Virus record (IMG/VR): IMGVR_UViG_3300045995_000532
Coordinates: 38,679 to 102,678 of that record
Source: a virus
Length of the DNA: 64,000 nt
Direction: 5' to 3' (one strand)
Shown one piece after another: positions 14,788 to 52,240 of the stretch. Position 1 is the stretch's first letter. Each line of letters begins with the position of its first letter. The notes below the pieces were generated by a model. The model made no database searches. It saw only the letters and a list, made by a program, of their open reading frames with translations, and was not told the origin of the DNA. The translations under genes were made by a program, and so were the position numbers.

Positions 14788-14817
14788 CGACGTTCTGACG
14801 GGTCGGTCAGGGCGCCG
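14788..14817 (+). promoter_or_regulatory. 11-8-11 imperfect palindrome, copy A
   Basis: CGACGTTCTGA-CGGGTCGG-TCAGGGCGCCG; recurs in other intergenic regions. Confidence 0.7.
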
Positions 14818-14962
14818 TCTGGTCATAGCGGACGAACCACTCTGCGCGACCGGCCACAACGTCTCACCCGGTCACCACTATTCCCTCCGCCTGCCTTCAG
14901 GGTCATCTTGTGGGGAGACACCGCATCGCAGGGGTGACAGGAACGAACAGGAGCTGGTTGAC

Positions 14963-15208
14963 GTGGTGGGCACCAACGAAAACCCGGTCAAGTCGGACAA
15001 TTCAGCCGAGCGTGAGATCAACTCACTCGGCGTCGCACTCCTCGGGAATGCCGAAACCGCGAACTTGCGGCGCATCTCGATGTTCAACCTCCGGGCTGGC
15101 ATCGAGGCTATCCGCGGATCGTACGGCGGCCAGCTCGTCATCGTGGCCCCGCACAAGCCGGGGGATCCGATCGAGTTCATCTACGACGGCATGGCGACCC
15201 GCCGATAA
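14963..15208 (+). CDS. Hypothetical protein (rightward)
   Basis: AGGAG RBS; good codon bias. Confidence 0.65.
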   Translation: MVGTNENPVKSDNSAEREINSLGVALLGNAETANLRRISMFNLRAGIEAIRGSYGGQLVIVAPHKPGDPIEFIYDGMATRR

Positions 15209-15210
15209 CC

Positions 15211-15492
15211 ATGAGGATCTCCTTGATCGCCGACCTCGACGACGGCACACGTGAGTACGCCACCACGGTGACCTACTGGGATCTGAGCCGCAACGAGCTC
15301 GGTCAGTTCGCCGCCATGCTCGCCGTGCGCCTCGCCGATGAGCTGCTCATCCCGCACACAGACCATGACAGCGCGAAGGCCATGACTTGGGAGTCACGGC
15401 CTTGGCACTGCGTCACCTCTGACAGTGGATGCACTCACAGTTCTACCAGCGCAGACGACCCTGTCAAGCCGAACGGGCCCCACCCGACTTGA
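15211..15492 (+). CDS. Hypothetical protein (rightward)
   Basis: Starts immediately after the previous stop; converges on the late operon. Confidence 0.55.
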   Translation: MRISLIADLDDGTREYATTVTYWDLSRNELGQFAAMLAVRLADELLIPHTDHDSAKAMTWESRPWHCVTSDSGCTHSSTSADDPVKPNGPHPT

Positions 15493-15718
15493 TGAACCCC
15501 ACCGGCGCCGTGTCGGGGTCAACCTCCCACGCGATGCCCGCCAGGACGGCCCCCTCGAACGTGGCGTAGCACCAGAACCGGCCGATCGCCCGGAGGTCAT
15601 CCACGGGCACCTCCACGAGGCGGAACAGGTACTGGGGGCGCACCTGCACCTGGTAACCGGCCGCGGTCTTCACGATCCACCCACCAGAGATCTTGACCAG
15701 CTCGGGGGGAAGAATCAT
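15464..15718 (-). CDS. Hypothetical protein, last gene of the tail operon
   Basis: ATGA-coupled start. Confidence 0.65.
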   Translation of the reverse strand: MILPPELVKISGGWIVKTAAGYQVQVRPQYLFRLVEVPVDDLRAIGRFWCYATFEGAVLAGIAWEVDPDTAPVGFIKSGGARSA

Positions 15719-16104
15719 ACGAAATATCCCTGGTTCGTCGTCGAGCCCTGTCCGCCGAACGTGGTGTACGCCAAGACGCAGTCCGTCACGAAGACGAAGC
15801 ATCCACTACCGGTCATCAGGTTGAACCATCCCTCGTTACCAGTGAGACCCGCCGCCTCTGCGCTGTTGAACCGGACCGCGGTCTTCAGCGTGTGAATCCC
15901 GGCGACATTGGGGAGCACCAAGAGTTCCGACTCCCCATACGCCCACCCGAAGCACCGTCCGGTGAAGATCCCGATCGTCACGGCGTCGATCACCTGTCCA
16001 GGATCGAACGTGTTGCCCTTCGTGCTGCTTGTCTCGACTCGGATCGTCAGATCAAAGACGAGGCCCGCCTTCGGGTCGAAAGGGGGAAGCGAAAGGCGAA
16101 TCAT
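15715..16104 (-). CDS. Putative minor tail/virion protein B' (paralog of 17156-17536)
   Basis: Shares LP.FDPK..L.FD, GLTG.EGWF.L, VFVTDC and NQGYF with 17156-17536. Confidence 0.75.
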   Translation of the reverse strand: MIRLSLPPFDPKAGLVFDLTIRVETSSTKGNTFDPGQVIDAVTIGIFTGRCFGWAYGESELLVLPNVAGIHTLKTAVRFNSAEAAGLTGNEGWFNLMTGSGCFVFVTDCVLAYTTFGGQGSTTNQGYFV

Positions 16105-17159
16105 CCCAGCCCTCCGACGCCTACGCGCTCAACAAACCTGTAGCGCGAAGGCAGAACCTCGATCGTACAAGTAATCTTCTTAACAGTAGCCGTCTGGTAG
16201 ATGGTCGTATCGTTCGTAACCTCTCCAATCTGTTGATTCTGCCCAGTATAGATTTCGCTGCCGACAACCGCCAATGTGATCGGCCAATGATCTGTAGAGA
16301 ATGTCGATGTCACCCATCCTGTATCTTGCCCGACGTGACCCCCCGCAAGTTCACCGCCCAAGGCCTGTGCCCGGACGATGCCAGACCTGAACAATGCGCT
16401 CGATTGCGGGTGATGGGCATCGGCTTCGCTTGTGTTGCGCATATAGGGCAGCGATGGTAGCTCGACCAGGTAGGCAAGGTCCGGCTCCGCGAGCGGCACA
16501 ATGCCTGCATAGTTGTAAGCATCGGAGTTCGCTTCCCATTCGACCGTAACACTGACTGGCGAAAGGTTAGTTCCGTATCCGTTTCCCTCGTATTCGACGT
16601 CGCAGCCATCGGGGCGCGTCGTCGGGCCAATGGCATAAACGCCAGCCGCGTCTAGGCTTTCACTTCCAAACTGGAAGTACGAGACCTGCCCTGAACTCGT
16701 AAAGAGCGTAGGAGAACCGTCGGGTTGCCACGTATAGGCCCCAAAGTGGCTTGCGGTCCGGAGTGGCCCGCCATCCCATTGCGTCGGGATTCGCCCCGAT
16801 TCATCCATAGAGAGAAAATTGAAGCCGCGGGCCGTGATGTCCTCGAAGGAGGCAAGCCCTAACGAATTGGCCGGAACATATCCCTCCCACCAGAACATGC
16901 GGAATCTCCCTGACAAGTATGACGCTGTCACGGGTGGTGGCTGCACCCAGGGCGAACCACTCGTCAGTGCTATACCCCTGGACTCATCCGCACCCAACGC
17001 GCTGTAGGGCCAGGAGCCAACTTCGTATGGACCGTCCGCTGCACGGCTCGTGGGGGCTGCCCCGTCCACGTCGTGGAGGCCATCCTTGAACGGGTAGGCG
17101 AGGTTCAGGACGTGCGGGCCCTTGACGGACTGGAGGATCGACGGGCGGTACCTGGTCAC
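16101..17159 (-). CDS. Putative minor tail/receptor-binding protein A' (N-terminus paralogous to 17533-17751, plus ~280-aa extension)
   Basis: YRP...QS...A.PFKDG...Y...W.Y...D.R.G shared N-terminus; AT-richer extension. Confidence 0.7.
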   Translation of the reverse strand: MTRYRPSILQSVKGPHVLNLAYPFKDGLHDVDGAAPTSRAADGPYEVGSWPYSALGADESRGIALTSGSPWVQPPPVTASYLSGRFRMFWWEGYVPANSLGLASFEDITARGFNFLSMDESGRIPTQWDGGPLRTASHFGAYTWQPDGSPTLFTSSGQVSYFQFGSESLDAAGVYAIGPTTRPDGCDVEYEGNGYGTNLSPVSVTVEWEANSDAYNYAGIVPLAEPDLAYLVELPSLPYMRNTSEADAHHPQSSALFRSGIVRAQALGGELAGGHVGQDTGWVTSTFSTDHWPITLAVVGSEIYTGQNQQIGEVTNDTTIYQTATVKKITCTIEVLPSRYRFVERVGVGGLG

Positions 17160-22659: not shown

Positions 22660-23090
22660 GGCGTCGGCCCCCCGTCGCCGACAGTTGCACTGGACACCGA
22701 GATGACGATGGCCGTGATGGTGTACGTGTGATACCAGTAGCGACCCACGCGCATCTTGTCCCCCGGATCCGGTTTGAACTCCTGCAGCACAAGAATGAGC
22801 CGACGCCCGAAATGGTCCCAGAGGAACAGCCTGCCTTGGCGGTCGTAGACCCAAGACCGCAACGCCTCATAATGGGCAGCATCCTTGATGGCCCCCGTGA
22901 ACGACCAGCTGGACGGCTGGCGCATCCCCTCCCACATGAGCACCTGCCCGTCGACGGCCGTCGTGCCCTTGGAGGTGATCGTGCGGATCGGGAACGGCGA
23001 CGTCATGGCGTGCGGGTTCCACGCGAACGTGTACGTGCCGGCCGGCGTCGGATCACTAGGATCCTGGAACTTCCAGCGGAGGACGCCCAT
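22656..23090 (-). CDS. Putative distal tail (Dit-like) protein
   Basis: First gene after the tape measure; size and synteny. Confidence 0.65.
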   Translation of the reverse strand: MGVLRWKFQDPSDPTPAGTYTFAWNPHAMTSPFPIRTITSKGTTAVDGQVLMWEGMRQPSSWSFTGAIKDAAHYEALRSWVYDRQGRLFLWDHFGRRLILVLQEFKPDPGDKMRVGRYWYHTYTITAIVISVSSATVGDGGPTP

Positions 23091-26000
23091 CAGATCTTCC
23101 TTCCGGTGGAGGCCATGACGACCTGCGCGCCAGCCCCGAGATACGTCTTCAGGTACTCGACCACCTGCTCGAGCGGGGCGCCGTTGATGTTCACCACGTT
23201 GTTCGAGTTGGAGTAGTCACCCACCTGGGTGGGCGCGCCCGACTGCATGGCACGGCGCACCTCGTAAATGGTGGGCAGCTTGATGTCCCCGATGTTGAAC
23301 TGCCCCTGCAGCGCGTCGCCCGCCGACTTCAGCAGCTTGTCAACCTGGTCGAGATCTTCCTGCTGCTGGCGGGTCTTCACGGCGATTGCCGCCAGCCGGT
23401 CATGCTCGCTCTGCAGGTAGCCGATGTACGCCGTGTGGGTGATCCGACCCAGGTCTTCAGCGGTCTGCAGGTCGGAGATGCGCTGGCTGAACGCCGCCTG
23501 CTCTGCCGATGCCTGCGTGTGCTTCAAGTCCAGGGAGTCCTGGCTGAGTGTGTCGACACCCTGCCCAGATGCCCGATCTGCAGCGAGCTGGTCCTGGGCC
23601 TTCTTGACATCGTTGATCGCCTGCGCCACTGGGTCAGTGATGTCCGACCCCAGCTGGCGGAGCCGGTCTACCTGGTCGCGTTCCTGCTGAGCGAACTCAG
23701 CCTTCGCCTCCACCAGCGCAGTCGACGCGTTCCAGTAGTCCTCAGTGCCCACCCTCGTCAGACCCAGATTCCGCGTCGCAATCTCGATACCAACCTTGGC
23801 CTTGTCGATGCCGGACCGGTCGCCGGCGATCGAGTGGCTGTCGACCGAGTTGGCGATCCCAACCACATTTGCGGCCTGCTGAAGGTTCAGTTGCGTGATC
23901 TGGTCCCGATACTGGCCCGCCTGCGCATCCCCCGCCGGCAACTGAGCCATCAAGTTTTGCGTGTTGGCGATCTCCTGGGCTGTCCGGGCGAGCTTGTCGC
24001 GAGGGTCAATGTTGGCCATCCGGTTGGCATTTTGCCCGGCGATGACGGCGCTTACGTACGCGTACTGAGCGTCCGTGACCGCCTTCTGTCCTGCCGAAAA
24101 AGCGGCCGTATCCTTCGTGAGCACCGTCAGTGCGAGCTTGGCGTTATCTAGTGAGGCGGCCGCCATGCCAATCGAGTCGCCAGGGTTGATGTTCTTCAGG
24201 TTATTGTTCTGCTGCCGGCTCAGCGACTCCATCTTGTCGCTGTAGTCCTTCGTGTTCTGAGCTTGCTGGGTAGCCATCTCCCCGGCGGCAAGTTGGGAGT
24301 TCAGTGCGGCAACCCGGTCCGCCGCAGATTGTTCGATCGCGGCCTGCGCGGCTGCCGCTTTTTTATATGGGCGAGAATCGTTGTCGTTTAACTTCCCTTT
24401 TGGCCACGGATTTTGCGCCAATTGAGCCTCAGTGTCTGAGGAGATCTTCGCCATACCTTCACTGCGAATGTTAGCTTGCTGCGTTCTTTCTGCATCGAGA
24501 ACAGACTGGTCAATTGCGTTCGCGCCGTGGATGTTGTCTGGAGTCAGATAAGACTTCTGCATGCCTGCAGCCGCCTGTAGATCGGTTACATTTGCATTGT
24601 ACACGGCTACCTGCCCGGCGGTAACCTGGGCACCCGCGTGAGTCAGAATCCTTGCATCCTTCTCAGTCACGTAAGGGTGACTTTTGATGATCTTAGTCGC
24701 CTTGTCTTGCGCTTCTTGTAGGCCTTTAAGACCTACTGCTGCGCCCTGCGACTTACTGCCCGTATCAGCCTCAACTCCAGCTGCGGCTGCCGCTGCCTGG
24801 GTCGCCAACCCGTCAAAGATTATCGCTGCGTCGAGCTTTTGAGGACTGTATGTTTTCAACATCTCAGTGATCTTTTCCCCGACGAGCGAGTTTAGTTTTG
24901 CTTTTCCCTCCGGCGTCAGGCCAGGCGCCGCTTTATCTGCTACGTCCTGCGACGTCGCAATAAGCGTATTCAGCTCATCCGGGGTAATGACGTTATCTGC
25001 AAGAACAGACTGAAGGCGTGATGAAATATTTCTTTGAATTGCGTCAGATACTGCTTTGCTCTGATCTGCGCTCAATAGCGTTGCGTCAGAGTTGCCTTGA
25101 GCTTCCGCTGCCATCTTCACAGTCTTATACTGATCAGCCCCAGGAGGCGGGCCAGCAGGATCAACCTGCCCATTCGGAAGATACCTAGTGGCAGCAAGAG
25201 GATCGGGCGTGACGTTACTCGCGAAGAATCCGGCCGTATCGCCAATTGCAGAAAGTGTTGCAGAACCGATGTCAAGAACCAGTTGATCTCGCTGCGCAGG
25301 TGAAACGACAGCGACGGCATTCGGAGTACCGTTGGCACTATCAACGATATCGCCAATCGCCTTGTTAAGTACCTCGAGCGACTGCGCCGCAGTATAGGAT
25401 TTCGTTTTTAGTATGTCCAACCCGGCAGTAATACCCTCAGCGCTAAAGTCACCGTTGAAAACACCGTCACCCTCGGTAGCCTTCGTATGTGCCCTGTCGT
25501 ATGCCGCTGCACGTTCTGACTGAAAGACCGACTGCTTCTTCAATTCGCCATAGTCGGCGCCGGTCGTAATCGTTGCGATGGCCGCCGACGGAGCTCCGAG
25601 GATGTTGCTCCACGACATCGTGGTCATCTTCTCGAGTTCCTTCGCGGCATTTTCCGCGGCAGCTGCAGCGTCCCTCATTTTTTGGCCCGAGTCGGCCGCC
25701 GCTCCCTGGAGACTTACGTCCACGACTGCCTGGTCGGCCGTTTGCTTGTTCTGATAGCCGGCTACCGCCAGGCCTGCCACGATTGCGCCCGCGATGACAG
25801 CAGCGCCCTGGGGCGTGATCGCCAACGCCCACGCCTTTCGCAGCAGGCCGGGACCGCTTGCTGCAGCACCCACCACGGCCGCTTCCCGCGCAACCGAACT
25901 CCCGGCAACCGCAGGAGCGGCGCTTGCCGCAGCGGCCGCCACAGACCGCTCTGCCTGGAGAGCAGCGGTGGCGCTGCGGCGAGCCGCCAAGGCCTCAGTC

Positions 26001-38048: not shown

Positions 38049-38078
38049 CGGCGCGCTGAGCGACCCGTCAGAACGTCG
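38049..38078 (-). promoter_or_regulatory. 11-8-11 imperfect palindrome, copy B
   Basis: Minus strand CGACGTTCTGA-CGGGTCGC-TCAGCGCGCCG; 28/30 identical to copy A. Confidence 0.7.
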
Positions 38079-40415: not shown

Positions 40416-40453
40416 GCCCCGACGCTCTGAAGAGTCCTTCAGAACGTCGGGGC
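40416..40453 (-). promoter_or_regulatory. 11-8-11 palindrome copy C within an extended hairpin (may also act as a terminator)
   Basis: Minus strand GCCC-CGACGTTCTGA-AGGACTCT-TCAGAGCGTCG-GGGC then TTCGTGTT. Confidence 0.7.
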
Positions 40454-40471
40454 GCAAACGTGCGGTGATGC

Positions 40472-41362: not shown

Positions 41363-43023
41363 TGCTTCGCTGTCGATGGGGCGCCAGTAGCGGTCCGCGG
41401 CTTCATAGCCCCTTGCGCTGACGTCTTCGATGTGCCCCCGCCAGCTGGCCGCCCACCCTGGGCGCCCGTTACCGCCGGCGGCACTCCACCAGAGCCATCG
41501 CCACTATTCGGCAGAGCATCCTTTGCCGGCCCGTTCGCGGGGGAGTTGAACGGCACTGCCTGCTTCCAGGTCGGGTAAAGCTCAGCGGACCGCACCCGCC
41601 GCTGAGCCTCGATGTCCTCGTCGAAGCCCAACCATTCGAGGAACGACGGCCGTGAGATCTCCTCGGACTGACGGGCAGTGGTGATGGCCGCGATCATCAG
41701 CGCATCCGAGTCAAGCTGGACATGGCGCGGGGTGAACGCCAACGCCGGCTTCTCGTCAGGCTTGAACGAGGCCAACACGGCGGCGTTGCGGGGATGAGCC
41801 CAGATGGCGTCGCGGATCTTGTCCTCGACCATGCGGGACATCATCTGGCGGCGGTTCTCCAGACCCCGGGCGATCATCCGTGAGGTGACCTGGGACTGCT
41901 CCTTGCCCATCGTGACCCGCAGCAAGTTGAGCGCCTTCGCGGCGATCCGCTCGTCGAGCAGGTTGTACCGGTCGGGCTGCAGGGTGTAGTCAACCTTTGG
42001 GGTGATGATGTCGATCTGCAGCCGGTGATCTGCGACGATGACAGGCAACCGTGCGATGACCTTGAAGTTCTCCTTCAGGTTGGAGAGCTCCTCAGTGGTG
42101 CCCGGCTGGACGTCGGTGCCCTGGCGGACGAGCAGAATGTAGTTCGCTGCCCCGACCAGGTTGACCCGGTCCGATTCCATCAACTGCTGCTTCATGTCCA
42201 GAAGACGGAACGTTGAGCGCAGCCGCACGTCAGCGAAACGCTCGAAGGAAGACTTGGTCACACAGTGACGCCATACCCGGTCCGGGTTGAACTCGAGCAG
42301 CGAGGCGGGGTTGACGCCCAGATGGGTGAGTTCGCCCTGCTCCGTCTCGCTGGGTGCGTAGCGGCCCAGGAAAAGTTCGGTCATGACCGAGTCGAACGTC
42401 AGCTCAGCGTCGCCGGTGAAGATGGACATCTCGTCCTTGGCAGCGTTCCACGCCATCCGGTCCTCGCCGAAGATGCTCATCCCGACTGGCACGCACTTGA
42501 GCGGGTCCAGCGTGATGATCTGGGTCGGCACCCACAGCGTGATCGGCTTCCGCTTCGGTGAGCCCTTCTTCCTCGAGCGCGGCAGGTAGGACCGCCAGCC
42601 CCACCATGCCGCAGAGACCGACTGGGAGTACGTGAACAGCTCGCGATACAGGACCCGCAGGTAGTTGTCCAGGTTGATGGTCGCGTTGTGCTGGTTGAAG
42701 ACGTCCGCGAGGTCCTCGTTGGAGGACTCCCAGTGGACCTCCTGCAGGATCAAGCCCTCGGTGAGCTCTGCGGCAGCGGAGATGATGTCGTCGTCACCCA
42801 CGGCGCCGCGCGCCGTCCGCATCTGCTCGTACGGGTTGTCCGATGCGGCGTACTTGGAGGGGTTGAACAGGCTCGACCGGCCGCTGCGGGCCCTCGTCTC
42901 GTTGGTCCACGACGACAGCTTCCGGGACAGTTCCCGGAGGGTGGGACTGATCGCGACGTCATCCACCCCGGACTGGTTGATGACGGAGATCTCACCAAGC
43001 GCATTAACGAAGTCGGTATCCAT
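41359..43023 (-). CDS. Portal protein
   Basis: 554 aa, downstream of TerL, helical, with a low-complexity GGRP C-terminus. Confidence 0.85.
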   Translation of the reverse strand: MDTDFVNALGEISVINQSGVDDVAISPTLRELSRKLSSWTNETRARSGRSSLFNPSKYAASDNPYEQMRTARGAVGDDDIISAAAELTEGLILQEVHWESSNEDLADVFNQHNATINLDNYLRVLYRELFTYSQSVSAAWWGWRSYLPRSRKKGSPKRKPITLWVPTQIITLDPLKCVPVGMSIFGEDRMAWNAAKDEMSIFTGDAELTFDSVMTELFLGRYAPSETEQGELTHLGVNPASLLEFNPDRVWRHCVTKSSFERFADVRLRSTFRLLDMKQQLMESDRVNLVGAANYILLVRQGTDVQPGTTEELSNLKENFKVIARLPVIVADHRLQIDIITPKVDYTLQPDRYNLLDERIAAKALNLLRVTMGKEQSQVTSRMIARGLENRRQMMSRMVEDKIRDAIWAHPRNAAVLASFKPDEKPALAFTPRHVQLDSDALMIAAITTARQSEEISRPSFLEWLGFDEDIEAQRRVRSAELYPTWKQAVPFNSPANGPAKDALPNSGDGSGGVPPAVTGAQGGRPAGGGTSKTSAQGAMKPRTATGAPSTAKQ

Positions 43024-43454
43024 TACGTGAGCCCCCCGAGCATCGCGATTTCCTGCCTAGCTGACTCTATGAGCCTGGACGCGATCTTGAACTGAACAGA
43101 TAATTCATCTTGGTACCTCTGGACCTGCATGGTTCTAACTCTCAATAGCTGACGGTCCAAACCTTCCGCGCGGTGCAGGAGCACGCACATCTCCGTCAGA
43201 CGCGCCCCGTAGGCGCTGCACTCTCTCAAAACCTGATCAGGTGCACGATCCCAGAAGCCGCGCATCGCGCCGGCGATGTCGTCCAGCTCGTCCTCGATCT
43301 GCTGGCGGTTGCCCAGCCCGCCACGTAGGACGGCCATCTCAGGGTTCGCGGAGTACGCCGGCTCGTAGGTGGACGTCGTGGTGACCACGTCACGTCGCAC
43401 CGTGACCGTGCTGGGACGCAGTGGGGTGTCGTCCTCGACGACGCTCTTCGGCAT
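43023..43454 (-). CDS. Hypothetical protein coupled to the portal
   Basis: MPKSVVEDD... start 9 nt after GTCGAT; TAATG overlap with the portal start. Confidence 0.7.
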   Translation of the reverse strand: MPKSVVEDDTPLRPSTVTVRRDVVTTTSTYEPAYSANPEMAVLRGGLGNRQQIEDELDDIAGAMRGFWDRAPDQVLRECSAYGARLTEMCVLLHRAEGLDRQLLRVRTMQVQRYQDELSVQFKIASRLIESARQEIAMLGGLT

Positions 43455-43470
43455 ACCGCAGGCATCGACA

Positions 43471-43512
43471 ACGAAGCCGAACGAAGCCGAACGAGGCCGA
43501 TCAAGGCCGAAC
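43471..43512. repeat. 10-bp tandem direct repeat x4
   Basis: ACGAAGCCGA ACGAAGCCGA ACGAGGCCGA TCAAGGCCGA. Confidence 0.8.
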
Positions 43513-43548
43513 CTGGTCACGCGCCCGTGGTCCACGTAGACGCGAAGG

Positions 43549-43574
43549 TAGACAGATAGGTCTATGATCGAACG
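43549..43574 (+). promoter_or_regulatory. Leaderless promoter and operator of the TA operon
   Basis: TATGAT (43563-43568) lies 6 nt before ATG 43575; TAGAC-N6-GTCTA inverted repeat overlaps it. Confidence 0.6.
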
Positions 43575-43805
43575 ATGACAGACACGACAACGATCCGAGT
43601 CAAGACCACCACCCGAGACCGGATTCGGACACTCGGTGGCGGACGCAGCGCCGACGACGTGATCCTCGCCGCCCTCAACGAACTGGAACGCCGCCGCATC
43701 AACGACCTTATGCGCGAGCAGTCCCTGGCCATCAGCCGAGACCCCGCGGAGCTCGCCGAAGCTCAAGCCATCGCAGAAGATCTTGAGTACGCCCGTGCGT
43801 GGTGA
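43575..43805 (+). CDS. Type II antitoxin (ribbon-helix-helix-like, MazE role)
   Basis: TTTIRV...TRDRI RHH pattern, acidic C-terminus, overlaps the toxin. Confidence 0.85.
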   Translation: MTDTTTIRVKTTTRDRIRTLGGGRSADDVILAALNELERRRINDLMREQSLAISRDPAELAEAQAIAEDLEYARAW

Positions 43806-44106
43806 CGTACATGAGTTGAAGAACCCGAAGGCAAGCATCGGCAACGAGCAGCGCGGCAAGCGGTACGCCGTCATCATCCAGTCGGACAGCCTCATGATCT
43901 CAACGACCCTGGTCGCCCCAACGTCGACCAGTGCGACACCTGCCGTGTTCCGACCCGAGATCACCCTCCTCGGCCAAAGGACCTGCGTCCAGGTCGAACA
44001 GGCCACCGCCGTCGCACCATCCCAGCTAGGCAAACTCGTCGGACACGCCACGCTTCGTGAGATGCAGGATATCGAAGCAGCGCTGCACCTCGTGCTCAAC
44101 CTCTGA
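43783..44106 (+). CDS. mazF: MazF/PemK-family endoribonuclease toxin
   Basis: RGDV...P...GNEQRGKRYAVIIQSD...LVAPTST...RPEI...VEQ..AV...LG. Confidence 0.92.
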   Translation: MSTPVRGDVHELKNPKASIGNEQRGKRYAVIIQSDSLMISTTLVAPTSTSATPAVFRPEITLLGQRTCVQVEQATAVAPSQLGKLVGHATLREMQDIEAALHLVLNL

Positions 44107-44112
44107 CCGCTC

Positions 44113-47100
44113 CTAGAAGAACTGTGCCAGCACCGGCGCCGGTGCCTTCGGCTTCTCCAGGAGTGCCTCGATCTGCTCCAGATCCTTCGCCGCGGCATAC
44201 ATACGAGCGGCATCGAGAGAGTGGCAGTTGCCGACCCCCCCGTACCGGCGCACCACACCGTCGTCGGAGGGGGAGGTTTTTACGATGTACGACGTCTGGC
44301 CGTTCCACTCACCGATCAGCTCGTCATCGAACGGCAACTCGATCGTCTTGGTATCGACCCGTTTCCTTAGAGCATCGGTCGAAAAATCCTTTATGTTACG
44401 AATTATTACCAGATCCTCGGGCTTCTCACCCCGCTTGAGTTCGCGAGTGTCGAACGCTACGGGCTTCTTCTCAGAGAAGTTGTACCCCGCAAGGCGCGGT
44501 CCGATGCTCGTGTTCTCCTTCAATATCTGCCACAACGGCAATCCGTTGCCCGTATTATGGGTCAGAATATGGCTACGAGTCACGTACAGGTGGTCGGCGG
44601 CTTCAACGCGGATACATACAGATTTCTCTTCGCCGTCCGGCTCGATCGTATCGACGAAGCGATGGAAACGTGCGGCCGAACGCGGGGTGCACGCATCTGC
44701 CTTGCGTGGAAGGCGGAACGGATTAACGCCAGGCGGAACACCCAGAGAAACCGCGTAGACGTCATGCCAGGGGAGTCCGGTCGAGTCACTCTTCGTGGCT
44801 GAGCGATCTACACGGCTGATCCTCGCGTACCCGCCAAGCGACTCAATGAGCTCCATGACTCCGCGAGCGAGGGCCTCCGACGTGATCTTGATCCCAACAT
44901 AGCCAGCACTATTCTTATTCGGAGTCACGAATCCATCGGTATCCATGATTCCCTGAAGGAGCGCGAGTCGCTGGCTAGACGAGGCCCGCAGATACTCCTC
45001 CGGGACATGCTTCTCATAGGCCGACTTGCCCGCCAACCCGAGACCGTCCAACGCAGCAAATACCATGTTGCGCTGGACGAAGCACCCCGTGCCAGGGTCG
45101 CGACCATGACCACGGCCCCCTACGGATTGAATGCCGTAGTCGTACCGTCCTTCGTACTTGACCTCATGCCCGGCCGGAAGAAGACGGCGTACCTCATCAA
45201 CGACAAACGGATCGGCATTCGCGAAACGAACGGAATGCTTACGAATGTTGCCGTCGCCCAGCAGAACACCAAGAAGGTACGGGTCCAGCGGTAGGTCCAG
45301 TTCCGGCATCTCAGCCGGCGCCGACATCAGCGGCACAATCCACTGACGCGGCTGCCCCTTAGTTTTCAACTGCTCCGTCAACAGCTTTAGTTGCTGGGCT
45401 GTCACCGTAATCGGATCGCGCTTTGGATACTTGGTACTCTCTACGGTCCACAGATGCTCCGGACCGCACCGCGTCCAGGAACCATCAGTGAAAGTCACCC
45501 TCATGACCCGACGATCATTCTGGGGGTACACCCCCGTGATACGCGTGGGCATGCCATCGGAGCCCACCGCATAGTCATCAACCTTCAGATCACCTATCGG
45601 CTTCCAGCCCAGCGGGGTCAGGACCGGCTCACTGACCGGCTGCATTTTGTCCATGCCATACCTGCGTAGCCGGGGACCGTAGAAGTCGAACAGGAACTTG
45701 ATGGCCCTGGCCTGGTCGCCCGCGGTGATGCGCTCGAGGCGCAGACGGAGCAGTAGACGGTCCAGGTTCTTGCCCTTCACGGTCCCGAAGATGAGGATCT
45801 CGGATGGGTCGTTGGTGTAGCCCACATCTTGGCCTCCCCAGAACGATGAATACTCGTCACCCAGGTGCGCGTAGTTCATCTCCAGGAGTGACTCAATCCC
45901 ACTGGCTCGCTCCACGAGGACGTCGGAGATCTTCAGGAGGTTGTACACCTCATCGTTGTACTGGGTAGCCCACGGTGACTCGTTGCGACGGCAGCACGCC
46001 ATGAGGCGAGCTGTGACGAAGAGGACTGATCCGGACTCGCTGGGCAGACCAAGGATGTTGCGTTGATAGTCGGGGTGGCTCTCGTCGCCACCGTACTGGG
46101 CGATCTTGATCTGACGCTCTTCGTCGGTCCAGGTGGGGCGGTGAGCGGCGATGTAGTGCAGCACCTGAAACTTGAACTTGTCGTTTCCGCCCTTATTCTG
46201 GGTCAAGGTGTAGTGCAGGTCACGACCAACACCCTTAGAGACGCCGTGGTTCCGCCAACTCATGCCTGGTGCGTTTGTCTTCACGGTCTCGATGAGTTCC
46301 GTATACCCGGCGAGCGGCATATCCTGAAGTTCGTCGACTTCCAGGATTACAGGGTGCGGGCCTTTGAGCCCTCGACCGTCCTTGTTAGGTAGACGCGTCA
46401 TTATCTGCGCCCTGTTGACGAACGTCATCGTCCAATGAGGCGTCTTCTTAAGCCCCCGATTAATACCACGGGGGCGCATTTCATTAAGAAGCCTATAGCG
46501 ATCAAACGCATTTTCGACTTTTGATGTCAAAAGGTCAAGGTGGTTCAACTCAGGTGCAGTAATGAGCATCTCCTGGCCGGGCTGGTTGAAGACGAAGTAG
46601 ATTGCCTTCCAGACGACCGAAAGCGAGTTGTGCGTGGGGACCAAGCCGTGACCCGCCAGGAACAGATGAGACGGTGAGGACACGGTGATACACCGCACCG
46701 GCACGGAGGCTACCGGCGTGACAGAGCAGATGCGCCGGTGGCCGGTCACGGTAGGTCCAGCCTTCACAGGGCGCCAGGCGTCCATCTTGCGGGGGAGCAG
46801 AGCTGGGTTGTGGCGCGCGCGCCACGTGACGCGATAGACAATGCCGCAGTCCTTGTCTCCGATGAACGCGCGCTTGGAGTGAATGCTGGGCTTTTCTCCA
46901 AGCGTGCGTAGAAGTTCCTGTACCGCTAGAGCCAAGCGATGCGACTTCTGTACGAGTTCACAAACCATCGTGCGTGGGTCAATGTAACCATCCGTGTCGA
47001 AGAACCCGGCCATGAGGGCGCGGCGCTGAGCCTCCGATGCGCGAAGGTACATCACCGGAACATGCTTATTACACAACACCGTCAGGTCGCGCAGTGCGCG

Positions 47101-48024
47101 ATGAGTGTCGCCTAAATGACCCTTATTGAACCCGTACCTAGATGCCCTTCCCTGGCCTGACGAGGCATGTGACGCTAAATGGTAGCCCCGATCCAAGAAC
47201 TGCTGCAAGATGGGCCCGTCCATCGAGGTAATAATCGGACTGTTGCTGTCCCCATCCCCGAGCCAAGCTCCCAGGATGTATGGATCTATGGGAAGTTCAA
47301 CATCTGCGGACCGCAGGGGCTCGGCCAGGGGGATACTGTGGTTGTGCTCCCGGGCAGCGGCAGTAGTGAGCAGAGAATCTCGAATCGCCAACGTGGTACG
47401 GATCTTCGGGACAGACAGTGCCTCTGCAGGCGGTCGCCGGTGCAGGAGAGCCCAGGCGCCGGTGTGCTCCTTGTATCCGAGCGCCTTCGAGATCTGGGTG
47501 TAGTCCTGACCGGCTGCGCGCATCTCGAAGGCTCGGTCGTACAGGACTTGACGGTCACGGTGCCCCTGCTGCCTGCCGCGAGCAGTAGCCACTCGCGCCG
47601 ACTTATCCCAAGTGAGCCACTCATGCAGCTCGTCGGCGACGATGGTCGTGCCGTCGTCAAACGTCACCTCGTAGCAGGGCCGATCGCGCTGGACCGGATG
47701 AGCATCTACAACGACGGCAGCCGAGCCTGTTTCGTCGTAGACAAGATCCCCTGCCTGGAGCTCGCCCATGGTGGTCCAGCCAGCAGGGGTAGGGATCGCG
47801 GTGTCGAGAGCGAGCGCCTTGCCTGTGGCGCGCGCCATTGCATCGACCGTGTACGCGGACTCCGCGTGAGACCACGGCCATTGAAAATCCCACAGGCGGT
47901 AGCACCCGTCAGGAGACTCCTCCTCGTCGACGAAAAGGAACTCGGCAAGGTCTACGCCGGTTGGATCCTCAAGGATCGCAAGGAGGGATGCTTCGTCGGG
48001 CGTGAGTCGTTCGAGTGCTGTCAC
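44113..48024 (-). CDS. terL: Terminase large subunit with two inteins (spliced product about 542 aa)
   Basis: Exteins: ARATGK|S Walker A, LEVDE Walker B, GQDVG and MDK|TGNG nuclease motifs, HSLDA C-terminal motif. Confidence 0.93.
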   Translation of the reverse strand: MTALERLTPDEASLLAILEDPTGVDLAEFLFVDEEESPDGCYRLWDFQWPWSHAESAYTVDAMARATGKALALDTAIPTPAGWTTMGELQAGDLVYDETGSAAVVVDAHPVQRDRPCYEVTFDDGTTIVADELHEWLTWDKSARVATARGRQQGHRDRQVLYDRAFEMRAAGQDYTQISKALGYKEHTGAWALLHRRPPAEALSVPKIRTTLAIRDSLLTTAAAREHNHSIPLAEPLRSADVELPIDPYILGAWLGDGDSNSPIITSMDGPILQQFLDRGYHLASHASSGQGRASRYGFNKGHLGDTHRALRDLTVLCNKHVPVMYLRASEAQRRALMAGFFDTDGYIDPRTMVCELVQKSHRLALAVQELLRTLGEKPSIHSKRAFIGDKDCGIVYRVTWRARHNPALLPRKMDAWRPVKAGPTVTGHRRICSVTPVASVPVRCITVSSPSHLFLAGHGLVPTHNSLSVVWKAIYFVFNQPGQEMLITAPELNHLDLLTSKVENAFDRYRLLNEMRPRGINRGLKKTPHWTMTFVNRAQIMTRLPNKDGRGLKGPHPVILEVDELQDMPLAGYTELIETVKTNAPGMSWRNHGVSKGVGRDLHYTLTQNKGGNDKFKFQVLHYIAAHRPTWTDEERQIKIAQYGGDESHPDYQRNILGLPSESGSVLFVTARLMACCRRNESPWATQYNDEVYNLLKISDVLVERASGIESLLEMNYAHLGDEYSSFWGGQDVGYTNDPSEILIFGTVKGKNLDRLLLRLRLERITAGDQARAIKFLFDFYGPRLRRYGMDKMQPVSEPVLTPLGWKPIGDLKVDDYAVGSDGMPTRITGVYPQNDRRVMRVTFTDGSWTRCGPEHLWTVESTKYPKRDPITVTAQQLKLLTEQLKTKGQPRQWIVPLMSAPAEMPELDLPLDPYLLGVLLGDGNIRKHSVRFANADPFVVDEVRRLLPAGHEVKYEGRYDYGIQSVGGRGHGRDPGTGCFVQRNMVFAALDGLGLAGKSAYEKHVPEEYLRASSSQRLALLQGIMDTDGFVTPNKNSAGYVGIKITSEALARGVMELIESLGGYARISRVDRSATKSDSTGLPWHDVYAVSLGVPPGVNPFRLPRKADACTPRSAARFHRFVDTIEPDGEEKSVCIRVEAADHLYVTRSHILTHNTGNGLPLWQILKENTSIGPRLAGYNFSEKKPVAFDTRELKRGEKPEDLVIIRNIKDFSTDALRKRVDTKTIELPFDDELIGEWNGQTSYIVKTSPSDDGVVRRYGGVGNCHSLDAARMYAAAKDLEQIEALLEKPKAPAPVLAQFF
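44554..45645 (-). mobile_element. Intein 2 (364 aa) in the TerL nuclease domain; Met1, class 3 WCT motif, LAGLIDADG endonuclease
   Basis: MQPVSEPVLTPLGW...EHLW...LGVLLGDG...LQGIMDTDG...SVCIRV...ILTHN|T. Confidence 0.9.
46627..47817 (-). mobile_element. Intein 1 (397 aa) in the TerL Walker A; Ala1, class 3 WCT motif, LAGLIDADG endonuclease
   Basis: ALALDTAIPTPAGW...LHEW...LGAWLGDG...MAGFFDTDG...VRCITV...VPTHN|S. Confidence 0.92.
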
Positions 48025-48048
48025 ACCTCAGGGATCGACCTGATGGGC

Positions 48049-48558
48049 TTAGCGCAGGGTAACCGCGGTATTCCGTCTATCTTTAACCGGGTTGACCAGG
48101 ATCTTGTAGGCCGTGATTGACGCTGTCGGCCGGTCGTTGAACGCCTTCGTGACCGCCTGGGCGATCTTCATCTGCCGGTACTCCAAGAAGTACGCGGGGG
48201 ACACCTTCGCGGCCGCGGCCACCTGCTCAAGTTTCCCGCACGACAGCGGTTCGACGCCGTGAACCATGCGGTGCAGTGATGCCACGTTGAAGCCGGCCCG
48301 GCCGGCGAACCCGCGCAAGGACGGCTTCAGGAACGCGTGGATGGCCACCGTGAAGGGCTCCGTGGTGAACCGCGGCCACAGGACATCGTGGACATCCTGC
48401 ATGGTGCGCGGGTGAGGGCTGGTCATCTTGCCCTTGGCGCGCGGGTCGCGTTCCTCGGTATCGATGTTGAGGAAGATAGCCTGTAGCACCGCCGCGAAGG
48501 AGGCTGGGACCTGGTTGAACAAGTCCTCCCACGCACGAATGTCGGGCTCCCGGGTCAT
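48049..48558 (-). CDS. XRE-like HTH DNA-binding protein
   Basis: SLRGFAGRAGFNVASLHRMVHG..P.....LEQVA.A..VSPAYF. Confidence 0.75.
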   Translation of the reverse strand: MTREPDIRAWEDLFNQVPASFAAVLQAIFLNIDTEERDPRAKGKMTSPHPRTMQDVHDVLWPRFTTEPFTVAIHAFLKPSLRGFAGRAGFNVASLHRMVHGVEPLSCGKLEQVAAAAKVSPAYFLEYRQMKIAQAVTKAFNDRPTASITAYKILVNPVKDRRNTAVTLR

Positions 48559-49280
48559 CGCGCCTTCTTTCGCTTCGGGTCGCGATCCAATTTTCGGTGA
48601 CACGAAATGCACTTAGGCGTATATCGGTCAAAATCCAGCGAAAAAGCCGCTATGACCCCACTGCCCCTATATGTCTCGGCGAGCATTTCGCTGGCGTCGG
48701 TATGATCGTAAGACCATTCCTTTGCGGGAGATCCGCAGGCACAGACTTGATCCTTTGCGTTCCCCTTCGCCTTACGGAAAAGTTTGTGTACAGATACGTA
48801 AGTCGGAACGTTATTTGCCAGCCGCTTATCTCTCGCAGCCCGAGAGGCACACTCTGACCTCAGGGCAAGTTGCTCCTTGGCGTAGCATCCGCACGAGGTC
48901 GTATCGCCGGATCGTAAACTATGTATCATGACCTGAACCTCATTACCACAGTCGCACCTAGCCAGCACATGCCGCCCAGTGCGAACTCGCGGTTGGTCAT
49001 CAAGCACGACGATAAGGCGACCGTATCGGTCGCCGACAAAATCGGCCCGCTTCCCGCCGCGATTATGGTCACTTTTCAAGCATCCGCAGGACCTTGTGCC
49101 AAAACCGACATTATTACTGCCTGCCCGGAGGCTAGAACTGATAACGACCACCTCAGAGCCGCAGTCGCAAATGCAGCGCCACTCGGCCTTTTCATGCCTT
49201 GTGCCTACTCGTTCGATAACAGTCAACCTGCCCACGCGTTGGCCGCGCCAATCAACCGCTGGGCGCCCCAGTGCGCTCAT
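48555..49280 (-). CDS. Probable HNH homing endonuclease with two GRL.V...CDCG...SCGC repeats
   Basis: Duplicated CDCG/SCGC domain; C-terminal CACG...YDH...CISCH; AT-richer than flanks. Confidence 0.8.
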   Translation of the reverse strand: MSALGRPAVDWRGQRVGRLTVIERVGTRHEKAEWRCICDCGSEVVVISSSLRAGSNNVGFGTRSCGCLKSDHNRGGKRADFVGDRYGRLIVVLDDQPRVRTGRHVLARCDCGNEVQVMIHSLRSGDTTSCGCYAKEQLALRSECASRAARDKRLANNVPTYVSVHKLFRKAKGNAKDQVCACGSPAKEWSYDHTDASEMLAETYRGSGVIAAFSLDFDRYTPKCISCHRKLDRDPKRKKAR

Positions 49281-49972
49281 AAGCTACCCACCCATGTCCG
49301 CTGACTGGTTGATCTGAACTCATCATCGATCTTCTCGAAGCGGGGGATGAACTCATCCTCCACCCACTTGACGATGTCGGCCTCGCTCTCTATGCCGACC
49401 ACGCGGCGTTCCACCGCGTTCATGCGCCGGTAGGAGAGGACGATGGACTTCAGTTCCTTGGCCAGAACCATCGCCATCACAGACTGCTTCGAGCGCATGA
49501 TTCCAAATTCGCCGGCGCGCTTTTTCAACTCGGCGATGTACTCCGGCACAGAGCCCTGGGATGCGTCACGGGACTCGCGGGTGAGACCGAGCTTCGTCTT
49601 CAGCTCCATGATGATCTTGGCGCCGTCGTTCTTGTTCCGGCGAAACTGCTCGTCCTGGGAGGCTGTCAGCCAGGCCCCGTCGTAGTCCTTGCCGCGGGCC
49701 ATCCACACGGTCCACCGGTAGTCCAGCAGCTCGAAGAAGAGCACCTTGTCCAGGTCGGCGAGGTCGGTGACGGCGGTGAACTTGTTCTCGAGCAGATACG
49801 CCTTCTTGTGGGAGTTGTAGAACCTACCCTCGGGGTCGCCCTGGATCTCAATCACCGACCCGGTGGGCTGGGTGACCCGCACCGTCTTCACGGTGGTCGA
49901 TGAGACTACTTTCGCGCCTGTTGGAGCGCTCAGGGCTACGCCTTTTCGGCGCCCACTACCGATTCCACCCAC
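49277..49972 (-). CDS. Putative terminase small subunit
   Basis: MGG.GSGR N-terminus and KLGLTRESR motif; upstream of TerL. Confidence 0.65.
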   Translation of the reverse strand: MGGIGSGRRKGVALSAPTGAKVVSSTTVKTVRVTQPTGSVIEIQGDPEGRFYNSHKKAYLLENKFTAVTDLADLDKVLFFELLDYRWTVWMARGKDYDGAWLTASQDEQFRRNKNDGAKIIMELKTKLGLTRESRDASQGSVPEYIAELKKRAGEFGIMRSKQSVMAMVLAKELKSIVLSYRRMNAVERRVVGIESEADIVKWVEDEFIPRFEKIDDEFRSTSQRTWVGSL

Positions 49973-49985
49973 TGGTTCCCCCCTG

Positions 49986-50019
49986 CTCTCCGTACCGTCC
50001 CTAGTTACGGTACGGAGAG
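49986..50019. repeat. Perfect 13-8-13 inverted repeat upstream of the putative terS
   Basis: CTCTCCGTACCGT-CCCTAGTT-ACGGTACGGAGAG. Confidence 0.85.
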
Positions 50020-50054
50020 ATGGGTTCTTGTCCAGCAGTGGGAACGAGCTCGCG

Positions 50055-50282
50055 CTAAGCGGTGGGCGCAGGCGCGTCGGCGACGAACTGGTCGCCCTCG
50101 ATGTGCCCGGTGACGCTCCACCCGCACGCACCGTGGGTGAGTCGCAGAATCTTGTGCACGCTGGCCTTTACCTGCGCGCCAGCGAGCGAGTACGTCCCGA
50201 GCGGCTTGGCGAGGAACGCCTCCCTGATCTCGAACGTCGGATCAGTGCGGGAGGTGGCGCCGCACGACGGGCAGGTAGCCAT
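50055..50282 (-). CDS. Small zinc-ribbon protein
   Basis: CPSCG...HGACG; GAGGA RBS. Confidence 0.7.
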   Translation of the reverse strand: MATCPSCGATSRTDPTFEIREAFLAKPLGTYSLAGAQVKASVHKILRLTHGACGWSVTGHIEGDQFVADAPAPTA

Positions 50283-50326
50283 TTCAGTCCTCTCGATGTG
50301 TCATAGCGGGACAGTTGATCAGGCGC

Positions 50327-50620
50327 TTAACGCTGCTCGGGGTCGTCAGGCGTGTAGTTGATGCCGTACTCGTCCCGGATACCGATGCGGCACTTTGTGT
50401 GCGCTGCGAGGAAGTGGGACGAGTGGGAGCGGAAGTACGCGTCCATGTCGCAGTCGTCGACCGAGGACGGCGCGTAGTAGTCCTGATTCGCTGCCACCGC
50501 CTCGCGATCCGCGATCTCAGCGCGGACGCGCGGCACGTCGGACAAGTGCTGCCCGGACTCGTCGTCCGCGCGCAGCGGCGGGTCGTGGTCGAGGCATTCG
50601 AGGTAGATGTAGGTGCTCAT
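50327..50620 (-). CDS. Hypothetical phage protein
   Basis: AAGGAG RBS; YLECLDH...H..C.I.I.DEYG. Confidence 0.65.
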   Translation of the reverse strand: MSTYIYLECLDHDPPLRADDESGQHLSDVPRVRAEIADREAVAANQDYYAPSSVDDCDMDAYFRSHSSHFLAAHTKCRIGIRDEYGINYTPDDPEQR

Positions 50621-50672
50621 CACTCTCTCCTTGGACGTTGCATAGCGGGCATGAGCAGACGCTATGCGTTGG

Positions 50673-50801
50673 TCACTGAGACTGGTAGCGATACCGCTCT
50701 TTGTCGGCACCGAGTTCGTCCATCTGCTCTTGGGTCAGGTCGCTTAGCGGGACGATGGTTTTCGTCGTGGTGTCGATCATCCAGATGGGTGGCATTTTCA
50801 T
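50673..50801 (-). CDS. 42-aa hypothetical protein
   Basis: GGAG RBS, MKMPPIWMIDT...; manual translation. Confidence 0.4.
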   Translation of the reverse strand: MKMPPIWMIDTTTKTIVPLSDLTQEQMDELGADKERYRYQSQ

Positions 50802-50825
50802 CGGATCTCCGCTTTCTCGCAGGCG

Positions 50826-50972
50826 CTAAACGGTGTCGTCGTCGCCCGCGTTTTCGGCATCGACGTCAGTGGGGGTACGGAGGCATGAGCAGATGGGCTG
50901 CTGAAGCGTCCCCTCGCACCTGCTGTAGTAGTGGTGGGCATCGGTGACGTGTCCGCATTCCGAGCACTTCAT
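50826..50972 (-). CDS. 48-aa Cys/His-rich protein
   Basis: GAGGAG RBS; MKCSECGH...H...C...CSC; manual translation. Confidence 0.5.
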   Translation of the reverse strand: MKCSECGHVTDAHHYYSRCEGTLQQPICSCLRTPTDVDAENAGDDDTV

Positions 50973-51051
50973 CGGGTCGCTCCTCTCGTTGGTCATGCCG
51001 TTTAGCGGGCACTAGATGCCGGGACAAACTAGCCCGAACCCGGACATCCCG

Positions 51052-51807
51052 CTACGTCAACACGCCGCGCATCTGAGCATCCGACGCGAACATCGCCTCA
51101 CGAGCAGCCTGCACCCACGCCCGCTGGACCGACGACGTCGGCCGGCTCAGCAGCAACTCCGCCGCCGTCAGATCTCGCACCACAGGGAGGCTGGCCACCC
51201 TCCCCGACCCAGCCAACGAGTGGACGAACTTCGTGGCCGTCTCCACCTCCCTGCGCGCCGCAGACCACCTCATCAACAGCACTGGGGTCAACGGCAGATG
51301 CTCAGCCATCGCGTGGTAACCCGTCAGTGCGCTGGGAGAACTCGACACCCTCACCGGGAACGGATGCACACCATCCACCATCACGGCCGTTCGAGCATGA
51401 GCCCCCACGTGTGTGATCCACGCCGCATCCTCAACCGTCAACCACACCAACCCCCGCGGATGGACCCACGTGAACTGGATGGCAGCCACAACACCGGGTG
51501 CCGCCCAACCCCTCTCCCGATACTCCAGCAACCCCCAGGAGCTGCTCAACAGCTTCCCCCGGCGGGCTGCAGTCACCACCAGGATCGGATTCGCCCACGG
51601 GCCCTCAGCGAGGTCAGCTGGTGTTGCTGATGTCCGACCCGCCCGCGTCGCAGAGTTGAAGGTCACCTGCTCCACATGAGCCACCACCGTGGACCGAACC
51701 CGATCACGGCGCGCCGCCACGAACGAACCAGCCGGCGCCGAACCCCGACGGCGATCCGACACCGAACGCACCGCGCCAGCGAACCTCGCCTGATCCGCTC
51801 GCGTCAT
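51052..51807 (-). CDS. Hypothetical protein
   Basis: Long ORF starting MTRADQ after GAAGG. Confidence 0.55.
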   Translation of the reverse strand: MTRADQARFAGAVRSVSDRRRGSAPAGSFVAARRDRVRSTVVAHVEQVTFNSATRAGRTSATPADLAEGPWANPILVVTAARRGKLLSSSWGLLEYRERGWAAPGVVAAIQFTWVHPRGLVWLTVEDAAWITHVGAHARTAVMVDGVHPFPVRVSSSPSALTGYHAMAEHLPLTPVLLMRWSAARREVETATKFVHSLAGSGRVASLPVVRDLTAAELLLSRPTSSVQRAWVQAAREAMFASDAQMRGVLT

Positions 51808-51809
51808 GA

Positions 51810-52240
51810 CCTGACCTTCGCCCCCTCGAGCAACCTCGGTCCGCGCCGACGTTCTGACCGGTCGCGCAGACCGCCTCGCGCGCGTAGAACAGGTAACTAG
51901 TAGTAACCAGAAGGACCTTCTACCAGCGCTCTTCATCGGAGATGAAGCTACGAGCGAAGCGAGTCCAGAGGAGCTGAGCGAAGCGAAGCGGAGGCTGGAA
52001 GCCTCTGCTTGTCGCTTGTCGCAGTTTTCGAGGGTAACCACAGGAGTACAGGTAAGAACCTGATAGAGCAACCGCTGACGCTCTGACGTACCGGTCAAGA
52101 TGTTGCCAGGGCAGTGGAGGAGACTCTTCAGCCAGCGCTCTTGGAGAGGAACGACGCTCTGAGCGATACGTCAGAACGTCGGTAGTGGTAACTCACCTGT
52201 AGCCCGGCGACGATCACGCCATGAGTCCCACGCGCAGGTC
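51810..52240. promoter_or_regulatory. Divergent non-coding control region with three 11-8-11 palindromes (51847-51876, 52076-52105, 52152-52181)
   Basis: About 430 bp between divergent genes; AT-richer; repeated motifs. Confidence 0.65.

Follow-up and report, generated by a model that had tools for sequence, protein, structure and literature searches.

We analysed a window of 64,000 nt that comprises bases 38679-102678, the right-hand 64 kb, of the 102,678-bp IMG/VR virus record IMGVR_UViG_3300045995_000532. The whole record has 64.4% G+C and a CheckV completeness of 100%, and the virus is an uncultured, siphovirus-like phage. Our subject is a dispersed 30-bp imperfect palindrome, CGACGTTCTGA-N8-TCAGAACGTCG, in which two 11-nt arms flank an 8-nt spacer (11-8-11). 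An earlier note on this DNA, written by a model from the letters alone, had listed six copies (A-F), and its positions and sequences for all six were correct. Across the complete 102.7-kb genome we found nine strong copies and one weak copy. Six strong copies and the weak copy, A2, fall inside the window, whereas three strong copies, referred to as g1, g2, and g3 herein, lie to the left of it at genome positions 8730, 27106, and 37938, respectively. Of these three, the one at 8730 is perfectly palindromic. The motif features inside the window are the following, with scores from a position weight matrix (PWM) where given.

14772..14782, plus strand: half-site CGACGCTCTTC, weak and isolated, 5 bp left of copy A; anecdotal
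14788..14817, plus strand: copy A, with the invariant arm, the centre cgggtcgg and a degenerate second arm
14835..14864, minus strand: copy A2, weak and D-like, AGACGTTGTGG-ccggtcgc-GCAGAGTGGTT; PWM score 15.7
38049..38078, minus strand: copy B, 70 nt past the stop of the capsid gene
40420..40449, minus strand: copy C, between a 296-aa head gene and a scaffold-like gene
51847..51876, plus strand: copy D, with the invariant arm and a poor second arm
52076..52105, plus strand: copy E, the loosest strong copy (PWM score 32.6), in the divergent control region that it has in common with D and F
52152..52181, minus strand: copy F, near-perfect; the first rightward gene (52244) is 62 nt downstream

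The copies are more frequent than expected by chance. The arm CGACGTTCTGA occurs seven times in the window at no more than one mismatch, where 1.63 occurrences are expected, and 0 of 100 shuffles reached seven. Under a relaxed criterion (one arm with at most one mismatch, a partner arm complementary at 7 or more of its 11 positions and a spacer of 8), the whole genome contains eight loci, whereas 100 dinucleotide shuffles contained 0.03 on average and never more than 1. All ten copies are non-coding, which bears out the intergenic location claimed earlier, and we found no above-background PWM match in confident coding DNA. The two half-sites that had been reported alongside the full copies fared less well: the one at 14772 is present but weak, and the one at 33610 has two mismatches and lies in probable coding DNA, at chance level.

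Within the palindrome, the first arm is nearly invariant, whereas three positions of the second arm vary and its inner TCAG and two CG steps are retained. Copies A and B share 94% identity across 32 nt, even though they are inverted relative to each other and 23 kb apart. Five copies (g1, g2, g3, B, and C) lie 0-70 nt past a stop codon within co-directional gene runs, and the others occupy two divergent control regions. Copies A and A2, which are inverted relative to each other and separated by 17 bp, share the gap from which the leftward replication operon and two small rightward genes diverge. Copies D, E, and F share the gap between the leftward structural operon and a rightward operon holding the candidate regulator gene described below. 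Copy D is ∼37 nt upstream of the ATG of an open reading frame (ORF) at 51052-51810 on the minus strand, the probable first gene of the structural operon. Within operons, the invariant arm and the centre are found in both orientations. We found no conserved -10 element, -35 element or GAAC/CGTC pair of the extracytoplasmic function (ECF) type at a fixed distance from the motif, and given this and the mixed orientation we rejected a reading of the motif as a promoter. A rule by which the spacer would point towards the operon downstream holds at seven of ten sites. At g2, B, and C, however, it clashes with the asymmetry of the arms, and it was dropped because of this conflict and because it is not conserved in relatives.

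The ORF downstream of copy D has an atypical codon-position GC and shows weak similarity (E 0.06-0.65, at the same place and in the same frame) to the first structural-operon gene of two related phages, G005 and G004. Judging from this similarity, the seemingly non-coding 1.2-kb D-F region may contain a diverged gene whose start is 37 nt past copy D. Positions 51880-52150 of the same region also contain repeated GGTAAC-containing words and two CCAGCGCTCTT words resembling degenerate half-sites.

Five related genomes were fetched whole and searched de novo for words whose copies precede their own complement. This search yielded equivalent palindrome families. In G005, cgcGATTCCTGC-N4-GCAnnnATCgcg is found at 16 loci (0.28 in shuffles), and the same motif type is found at 15 loci in G003. 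G004 carries a GCGCTAGCGC-centred type at about 10 loci (9-10) and G006 carries TGCGAACG-NN-CGTTGGCA at 45 loci, while G002 has a weak, small family of 3-4 copies. The families in G005, G003, and G004 share the build seen in the phage studied here (G000). In G005, an invariant first arm is followed by a semi-conserved, off-centre middle and a part-degenerate second arm. The inner and outer blocks of this second arm are conserved and the stretch opposite the TTCC core is degenerate, with a mismatched mid-arm in 10 of 16 copies. A TTC(C)TG core is common to the G005 arm and the invariant arm of G000.

To compare the placement of these families, each site was projected via its flanking genes onto the other genomes. 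Projected from G000 to G003, g2 falls 8 nt from the site at 9057, B falls 21 nt from that at 48197, and C falls 33 nt from that at 45956; the G003 site at 48197 is located 55 nt past its capsid gene and is the counterpart of B. In G004, copy C projects to ∼30 nt from the site at 18103. Copies A and A2 project into the divergent gap heading the replication operon, where sites are present in G003 (67712), G005 (64295/64322), and G004 (39469). Against G005, projection brought 6 of the 15 sites in G003 and 4 of the 9 in G004 to within 50 nt of a site, with one more G004 site ∼110 nt away; the match between G004 and G005 holds despite the different motif in G004. Since about 15% of junctions carry a site, we estimate, by a rough binomial calculation, that such overlap has P ∼0.001-0.01 per genome pair. 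The orthologous junctions with sites include the heads of the replication and structural operons, the gap after the capsid gene, and the gap before the scaffold gene. Paired or clustered sites in divergent control regions are likewise found in G000 and in G005 (32295/32426 and 64295/64322). What is not kept is the geometry, which is 12-4-12 and 8-2-8 in relatives at the same places, nor the choice of the invariant arm, which differs between orthologous sites (e.g., those that follow the capsid gene, precede the major tail gene, or head the replication operon) and also differs relative to transcription.

The positions of these sites have thus been kept while their sequence was replaced genome-wide, which points to a trans-acting factor that reads the sequence. 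The indifference to orientation suggests a symmetric protein on duplex DNA; it would be unexpected of a promoter, an oriented stoperator, or a sequence-specific RNA ligand. In addition, the 11-nt arm is near-invariant while hairpin stability spans about -7 to -21 kcal/mol, with B, D, and E folding poorly, and so it is sequence rather than pairing that is conserved. Taken together, this indicates that the motif is a real, functional, phage-specific cis element. The earlier note had proposed a phage-wide cis element, and the different palindromes at orthologous junctions of relatives both support and extend that proposal. We infer that the copies are probably duplex-DNA sites of one phage-encoded symmetric regulator and act in the manner of the dispersed operators of phiC31 and L5; of the three options put forward earlier, a regulator's operator is the best supported. 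Such a regulator would be sequence-specific and dimeric or pseudo-dimeric, and its sites would together form a genome-wide regulon, in which A and A2 head the replication operon, D, E, and F separate the structural operon from the candidate-regulator operon, and single sites occupy intra-operon gaps. One arm would constitute a full-strength half-site and the second arm, which keeps its inner and outer blocks but is often weakened in its middle, would grade affinity among sites. The sign of control that we favour is repression at operon heads with roadblocks within operons, as in prophage silencing, though the regulator could alternatively exert positive control of internal promoters.

A candidate for this regulator is encoded next to the D-F cluster, where its gene is interrupted by an insertion sequence (IS).

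52824..53102, plus strand: N-terminal part of the candidate regulator, 92 aa, with a Cro/C1-type helix-turn-helix (HTH), cut by IS21
53101..55563, plus strand: IS21-family element with istA (53222-54661), istB (54658-55509) and terminal inverted repeats
55565..56008, plus strand: C-terminal part of the candidate regulator, with a second HTH

The IS21 element has a G+C fraction of 0.71, compared to 0.64 for the phage, and it interrupts the candidate two-HTH regulator gene within its linker. The gene at 52824-53102 stops exactly at the left end of IS21, the frame resumes right past the element and continues to 56008, and both halves match one contiguous gene in G004. The IS-disrupted HTH gene suggested earlier as a source of the binder is therefore truly one gene split by IS21, and it fits the operator reading in that it adjoins the site cluster in four genomes: in G003, G005, G004, and G000 the candidate gene is divergent from the structural operon with sites in between, and in G003 a site is 87 nt upstream of the candidate gene start. 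An exhaustive HMMER search of the family gave 69 representatives, all of which are single proteins of ∼230-290 aa except for two entries that are the halves from this genome. Pfam matches to the N-terminal Cro/C1-type HTH were obtained in 15-16 of 44 members, and a C-terminal HTH_23-type match in 21 of 44. An AlphaFold 2 model has a pLDDT of 90.8; Foldseek analysis of the N domain returned weak matches to XRE-family HTHs (probabilities of 0.96-0.99 over 55-60 aa), none of them at E ≤ 0.001. We found no characterised relative of the two-HTH family in Pfam, PDB-fold, or word-index searches. This 230-290-aa two-HTH protein is the most likely binder, and we speculate that a dimer with four HTHs would fit the four conserved blocks of the site. 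The closest relatives of the IS21 transposase (IstA), at ≤79% identity, are all from Actinomycetota, which points to an actinobacterial host.

Other proteins were considered as well. The protein encoded at 48049-48612, which the earlier note had also named as a possible binder, is conserved directly upstream of the large terminase in all relatives; this position suggests that it is more likely a packaging protein. A 72-aa ribbon-helix-helix (RHH) protein has a single homologue and is absent from relatives, and hence cannot be the clade-wide factor. Generic HTH/RHH profile scans of the genome detected only the IstA HTH and one antitoxin, and PDB sequence searches with the RHH protein, the par partner, the N part of the HTH protein, and a 187-aa protein gave nothing useful.

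Several observations weigh against the regulator reading. The motif type is common to G003 and G005, yet their candidate orthologues are very different, with different recognition helices, and the G005 orthologue is without the C-terminal HTH. As candidate protein and motif do not cleanly co-vary, the binder may be another protein. A simple homodimer also leaves the conserved asymmetric centre unexplained. Furthermore, the centre (c1 g2 .. c6 g7) can lengthen the stem to 13 bp, and the centre of copy C is replaced by a different sequence that still pairs, which hints at selection for a hairpin. Five sites are nearer to the upstream stop codon than to the downstream start, as terminators are, and copy C itself, whose stem reaches 17 bp (40416-40453) around a 4-nt loop and is followed by a T-rich tail, has the look of a genuine intrinsic terminator.

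These last points bring up the main rival explanation, namely that the palindrome acts as a hairpin in the transcript, either as a terminator or attenuator (intrinsic or factor-dependent), as an RNase III/E processing or 3′-stabilising element, or as the target of an RNA-binding (antitermination) protein of the phage. Besides the five copies that closely follow stop codons, copy C among them, an inverted repeat with a 3-8 nt loop is what this explanation calls for, and the conserved junctions (post-capsid, pre-scaffold, and pre-major tail gene) are often places of mRNA tuning in phages. However, B (-7.6 kcal/mol on the sense strand), D, and E make poor hairpins and keep the invariant arm nonetheless, and the mismatched mid-arm of most G005 copies is similarly at odds with a conserved stem. 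Four to five copies are in divergent control regions, and the orientation flips between orthologous sites would not be tolerated by a sequence-specific RNA ligand. In a terminator scan of window positions 37000-53000, which covers copies B-F, only C passed. By eye we saw no T-rich tail besides that of C, the tail of g2 being the T-richest of the rest. Copy B, moreover, comes after a separate, perfect, G+C-rich 11-bp hairpin with a 12-nt loop (38096-38129), which is positioned directly past the capsid stop and 19 nt before B. Ordinary terminator-like hairpins of unique sequence are found elsewhere in the phage too, so that the motif is a separate class and not simply the form that terminators take in this phage. 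On this evidence we regard a transcript hairpin as unlikely, if still worth keeping in mind. At the same post-capsid place, relative L001 has a hairpin unrelated to that of G000.

The earlier note had also reported strand-specific G-T pairing. The T-G at arm position 6 is real in A, B, C, and F, but the strand bias is not significant. By hand tally, the 22 non-Watson-Crick positions in all copies comprise 10 canonical-strand wobbles, 6 other-strand wobbles, and 6 transversion-type mismatches; this split is what transition bias alone gives, and the strand argument therefore fails. Nor did folding consistently favour the sense strand: RNAfold scored the transcribed strand better than the other at two sites, worse at one, and equal at two. 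At the gathering score, no Rfam family matched the window. As an option, a hairpin in RNA or single-stranded DNA is accordingly weaker than it had seemed, given the poor-folding copies that keep the invariant arm, the unconserved orientation at orthologous sites, and the loss of the G-T argument.

We also asked whether the palindrome occurs beyond this phage. A strict motif pattern had no matches in IMG/VR, and a looser pattern had 24 single-copy matches in which the outer arm is unpaired and which show no kinship to the phage. The exact degenerate pattern was absent from 185,579 GTDB bacterial species genomes, which disfavours a host regulon or host repeat. JGI metagenomes contained four loci (three distinct), each with a single copy and no protein in common with the phage, which we estimate to be at chance level, and the motif was absent from 60 related structural-module loci. 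These results bear on the possibility that the copies are selfish or neutral repeats (like repetitive extragenic palindromes, REP, or miniature inverted-repeat transposable elements, MITE) or recombination scars, spread by copying and functionless. Sub-families with common non-symmetric details do suggest copying or gene conversion between sites: A and B are identical at 28 of 30 positions, ccggtcgcGCAGA is common to D and A2, and cgtatcg to F and g2. Yet, apart from the lack of copies in bacterial genomes and IMG/VR, there is no RAYT/Y1 transposase (no PF01797 match), and conserved positions across phages with differing motifs are the opposite of how mobile repeats behave. We consider functionless repeats highly improbable.

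The third option raised earlier was that of Xer/cer-like core sites for a tyrosine recombinase, with inversion of the tail module between A and B or flipping between D and F. The 11-8-11 geometry and the inverted arrangement of A and B are what recommend it. Although CheckV puts the record at 100% completeness, searches with PF00589 and PF00239 turned up neither a tyrosine nor a serine recombinase. While Xer/cer systems use one site per replicon, the ten sites here, in both orientations, would scramble the genome. An A-B inversion would also separate the tail genes from their operon, and the 12-4-12 and 8-2-8 geometries of relatives do not fit such a core. This option is thus unsupported, and we give it the least credence of all.

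Lastly, the left arm of the genome encodes ParA, a Phd/ParE pair, and an RHH-type partner, which raises the possibility that the copies are dispersed centromere sites for partition of a phage-plasmid by ParA and its RHH partner, comparable to the N15 IR sites or to KorB operators in RK2. The 174-aa RHH-like partner has CB_ParB_C/ParG-like neighbours in a protein atlas, copy g3 is 65 nt upstream of the RHH-rep-parA operon, and in N15 there are four IR sites at separate places (10.1101/862136). However, G002, G004, and G005 contain nothing that corresponds to the rep-par module, and at least G004 and G005 have clear equivalent sites at the same junctions. Directly upstream of parA there are, in addition, four CGATAGAC-like repeats in the layout usual for type Ib RHH systems. 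Because the relatives are without the module and parA has its own upstream repeats, a centromere role appears very unlikely for the palindrome. The CGATAGAC-like repeats, which lie at 15480-15600 of locus L066 (genome 35480-35600) in an AT-richer gap between a Rep-like gene and parA, are likely the par operator or centromere.

Dispersed operator systems have been worked out in few cultured actinophages, notably in L5 and its relatives and in phiC31. According to Ingham et al. 1994, the phiC31 c repressor reportedly binds conserved inverted repeats. Like the phage studied here, phiC31 is an actinophage with many dispersed intergenic copies of one inverted repeat, one of which autoregulates the repressor gene. 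The same layout is seen here in the ten non-coding copies and in the sites that adjoin the candidate regulator gene in G003, G005, G004, and G000. The two differ in sequence, in length (∼17 bp versus 30 bp in the 11-8-11 arrangement), and in number, with fewer sites (10) in our case; the searches that found no characterised relative of the two-HTH candidate included no direct comparison with the phiC31 c protein. By analogy, the present element seems to work most like the phiC31 case. In phiC31 and L5, 18-30 repressor sites are dispersed over the genome (PMC4557955).

L5-type stoperators are 13-bp asymmetric sites that are bound by a monomer and function in a single orientation relative to transcription (PMC9283540). 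In Cluster A phages (L5 gp71 and the TipsytheTRex repressor), site specificity diverges between related phages (PMC9283540, PMC6550527). As in our case, one type of site is found at promoters and in short intra-operon gaps, and the Cluster A sites are thought to silence the whole genome. Unlike these short, asymmetric, and oriented sites, the element described here is a 30-bp pseudo-palindrome of mixed orientation. Pfam scans of the candidates gave generic HTH matches only, no search aimed at gp71-type repressors having been made. The Cluster O mycobacteriophages carry 34 copies of a 17-bp dyad of unknown function, TGTTCGG-N3-CCGAACA (PMC4351075). That repeat is likewise phage-specific and mostly intergenic or near gene starts, and its centre follows no orientation rule (PMC4351075). 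It is short and its arms are invariant in all 34 copies, whereas one arm is degenerate in our 30-bp element, for which we also show positional conservation across phages with different motifs. N15, with its four separated SopB inverted repeats (10.1101/862136), and pCXC100, whose type Ib RHH centromere consists of nine 9-nt repeats (PMC3074162), resemble the present case as a phage-plasmid or actinobacterial plasmid with protein-binding repeats. They differ from it in that equivalent sites here occur in relatives without a par module and in that a separate array lies upstream of parA. All in all, the element lacks the defining features of stoperators, Xer sites, terminators, REP elements, and centromeres.

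Although the element is in itself no new kind of system, it places the logic of dispersed operators in an uncultured clade. What it adds is the conservation of site positions in the face of genome-wide replacement of the sequence recognised, together with the split regulator gene. The lineages offer a natural series for studying joint change of specificity in a regulator and its regulon, and their palindromes could mark immunity groups or serve as orthogonal repressor-operator pairs for high-GC hosts. We tentatively extend the operator reading to the clade, although we would sooner expect this broader version to fail than to hold: uncultured actinobacterial siphoviruses would share one wiring in which each lineage has swapped both site sequence and regulator, a new two-HTH family would read a four-block pseudo-palindrome, and IS21 would have knocked out the regulator in this phage. 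If so, the knockout would have left a derepressed phage-plasmid, were the regulator a repressor, or a dead one, were it an activator.

Other repeated motifs were noted in the relatives. The G006 motif (loci L194-L198; e.g., 17855 and 57478) is GAAC-N4-GTT(C/G) and resembles the LexA box of Gram-positive bacteria and actinobacteria. Several other relatives (L025, L027, L041, L044, L045, L050, and L051) carry AACGSSCGTT, and both types of repeat may be a phage-wide set of LexA-like boxes. In the more distant L054 and L055, gttaa-N2-TTCACCTGAAGGA is found just upstream of start codons (e.g., at 4481, 6766, and 10843 in L054), which appears to be a different repeated motif of a promoter- or leader-like kind.

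With regard to the remaining gene content, a phage nucleotide collection contained no relative, and all that protein searches yielded were distant relatives of the capsid from Bacillus Basilisk-like phages and one mangrove-soil record. The phage has a primase-helicase gene. The replication arm encodes a WhiB-like protein (821-1174), a C5 cytosine methyltransferase (3926-4978), and an N6/N4 methyltransferase (5780-7006), and a third methyltransferase with a DPPY motif is located further left (genome 30879-31565). The WhiB-like protein and the three DNA methyltransferases are conserved, and we saw no tie between them and the palindrome. For a 2573-aa ORF at 23090-30811, neither Pfam nor PHROG gave a match; parts of the ORF are kept in relatives at the position of the tape measure gene, and its G+C fraction falls to 0.57-0.60 in the middle. 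The large terminase gene (44113-48024) encodes 1303 aa with two intein-type insertions (LAGLIDADG_3 and Hom_end domains). Relatives of the capsid gene (38148-39131) are all uncultured, with a top identity of 65% and 59% in the nearest fetched genome, and an identical capsid protein is encoded on two other contigs.

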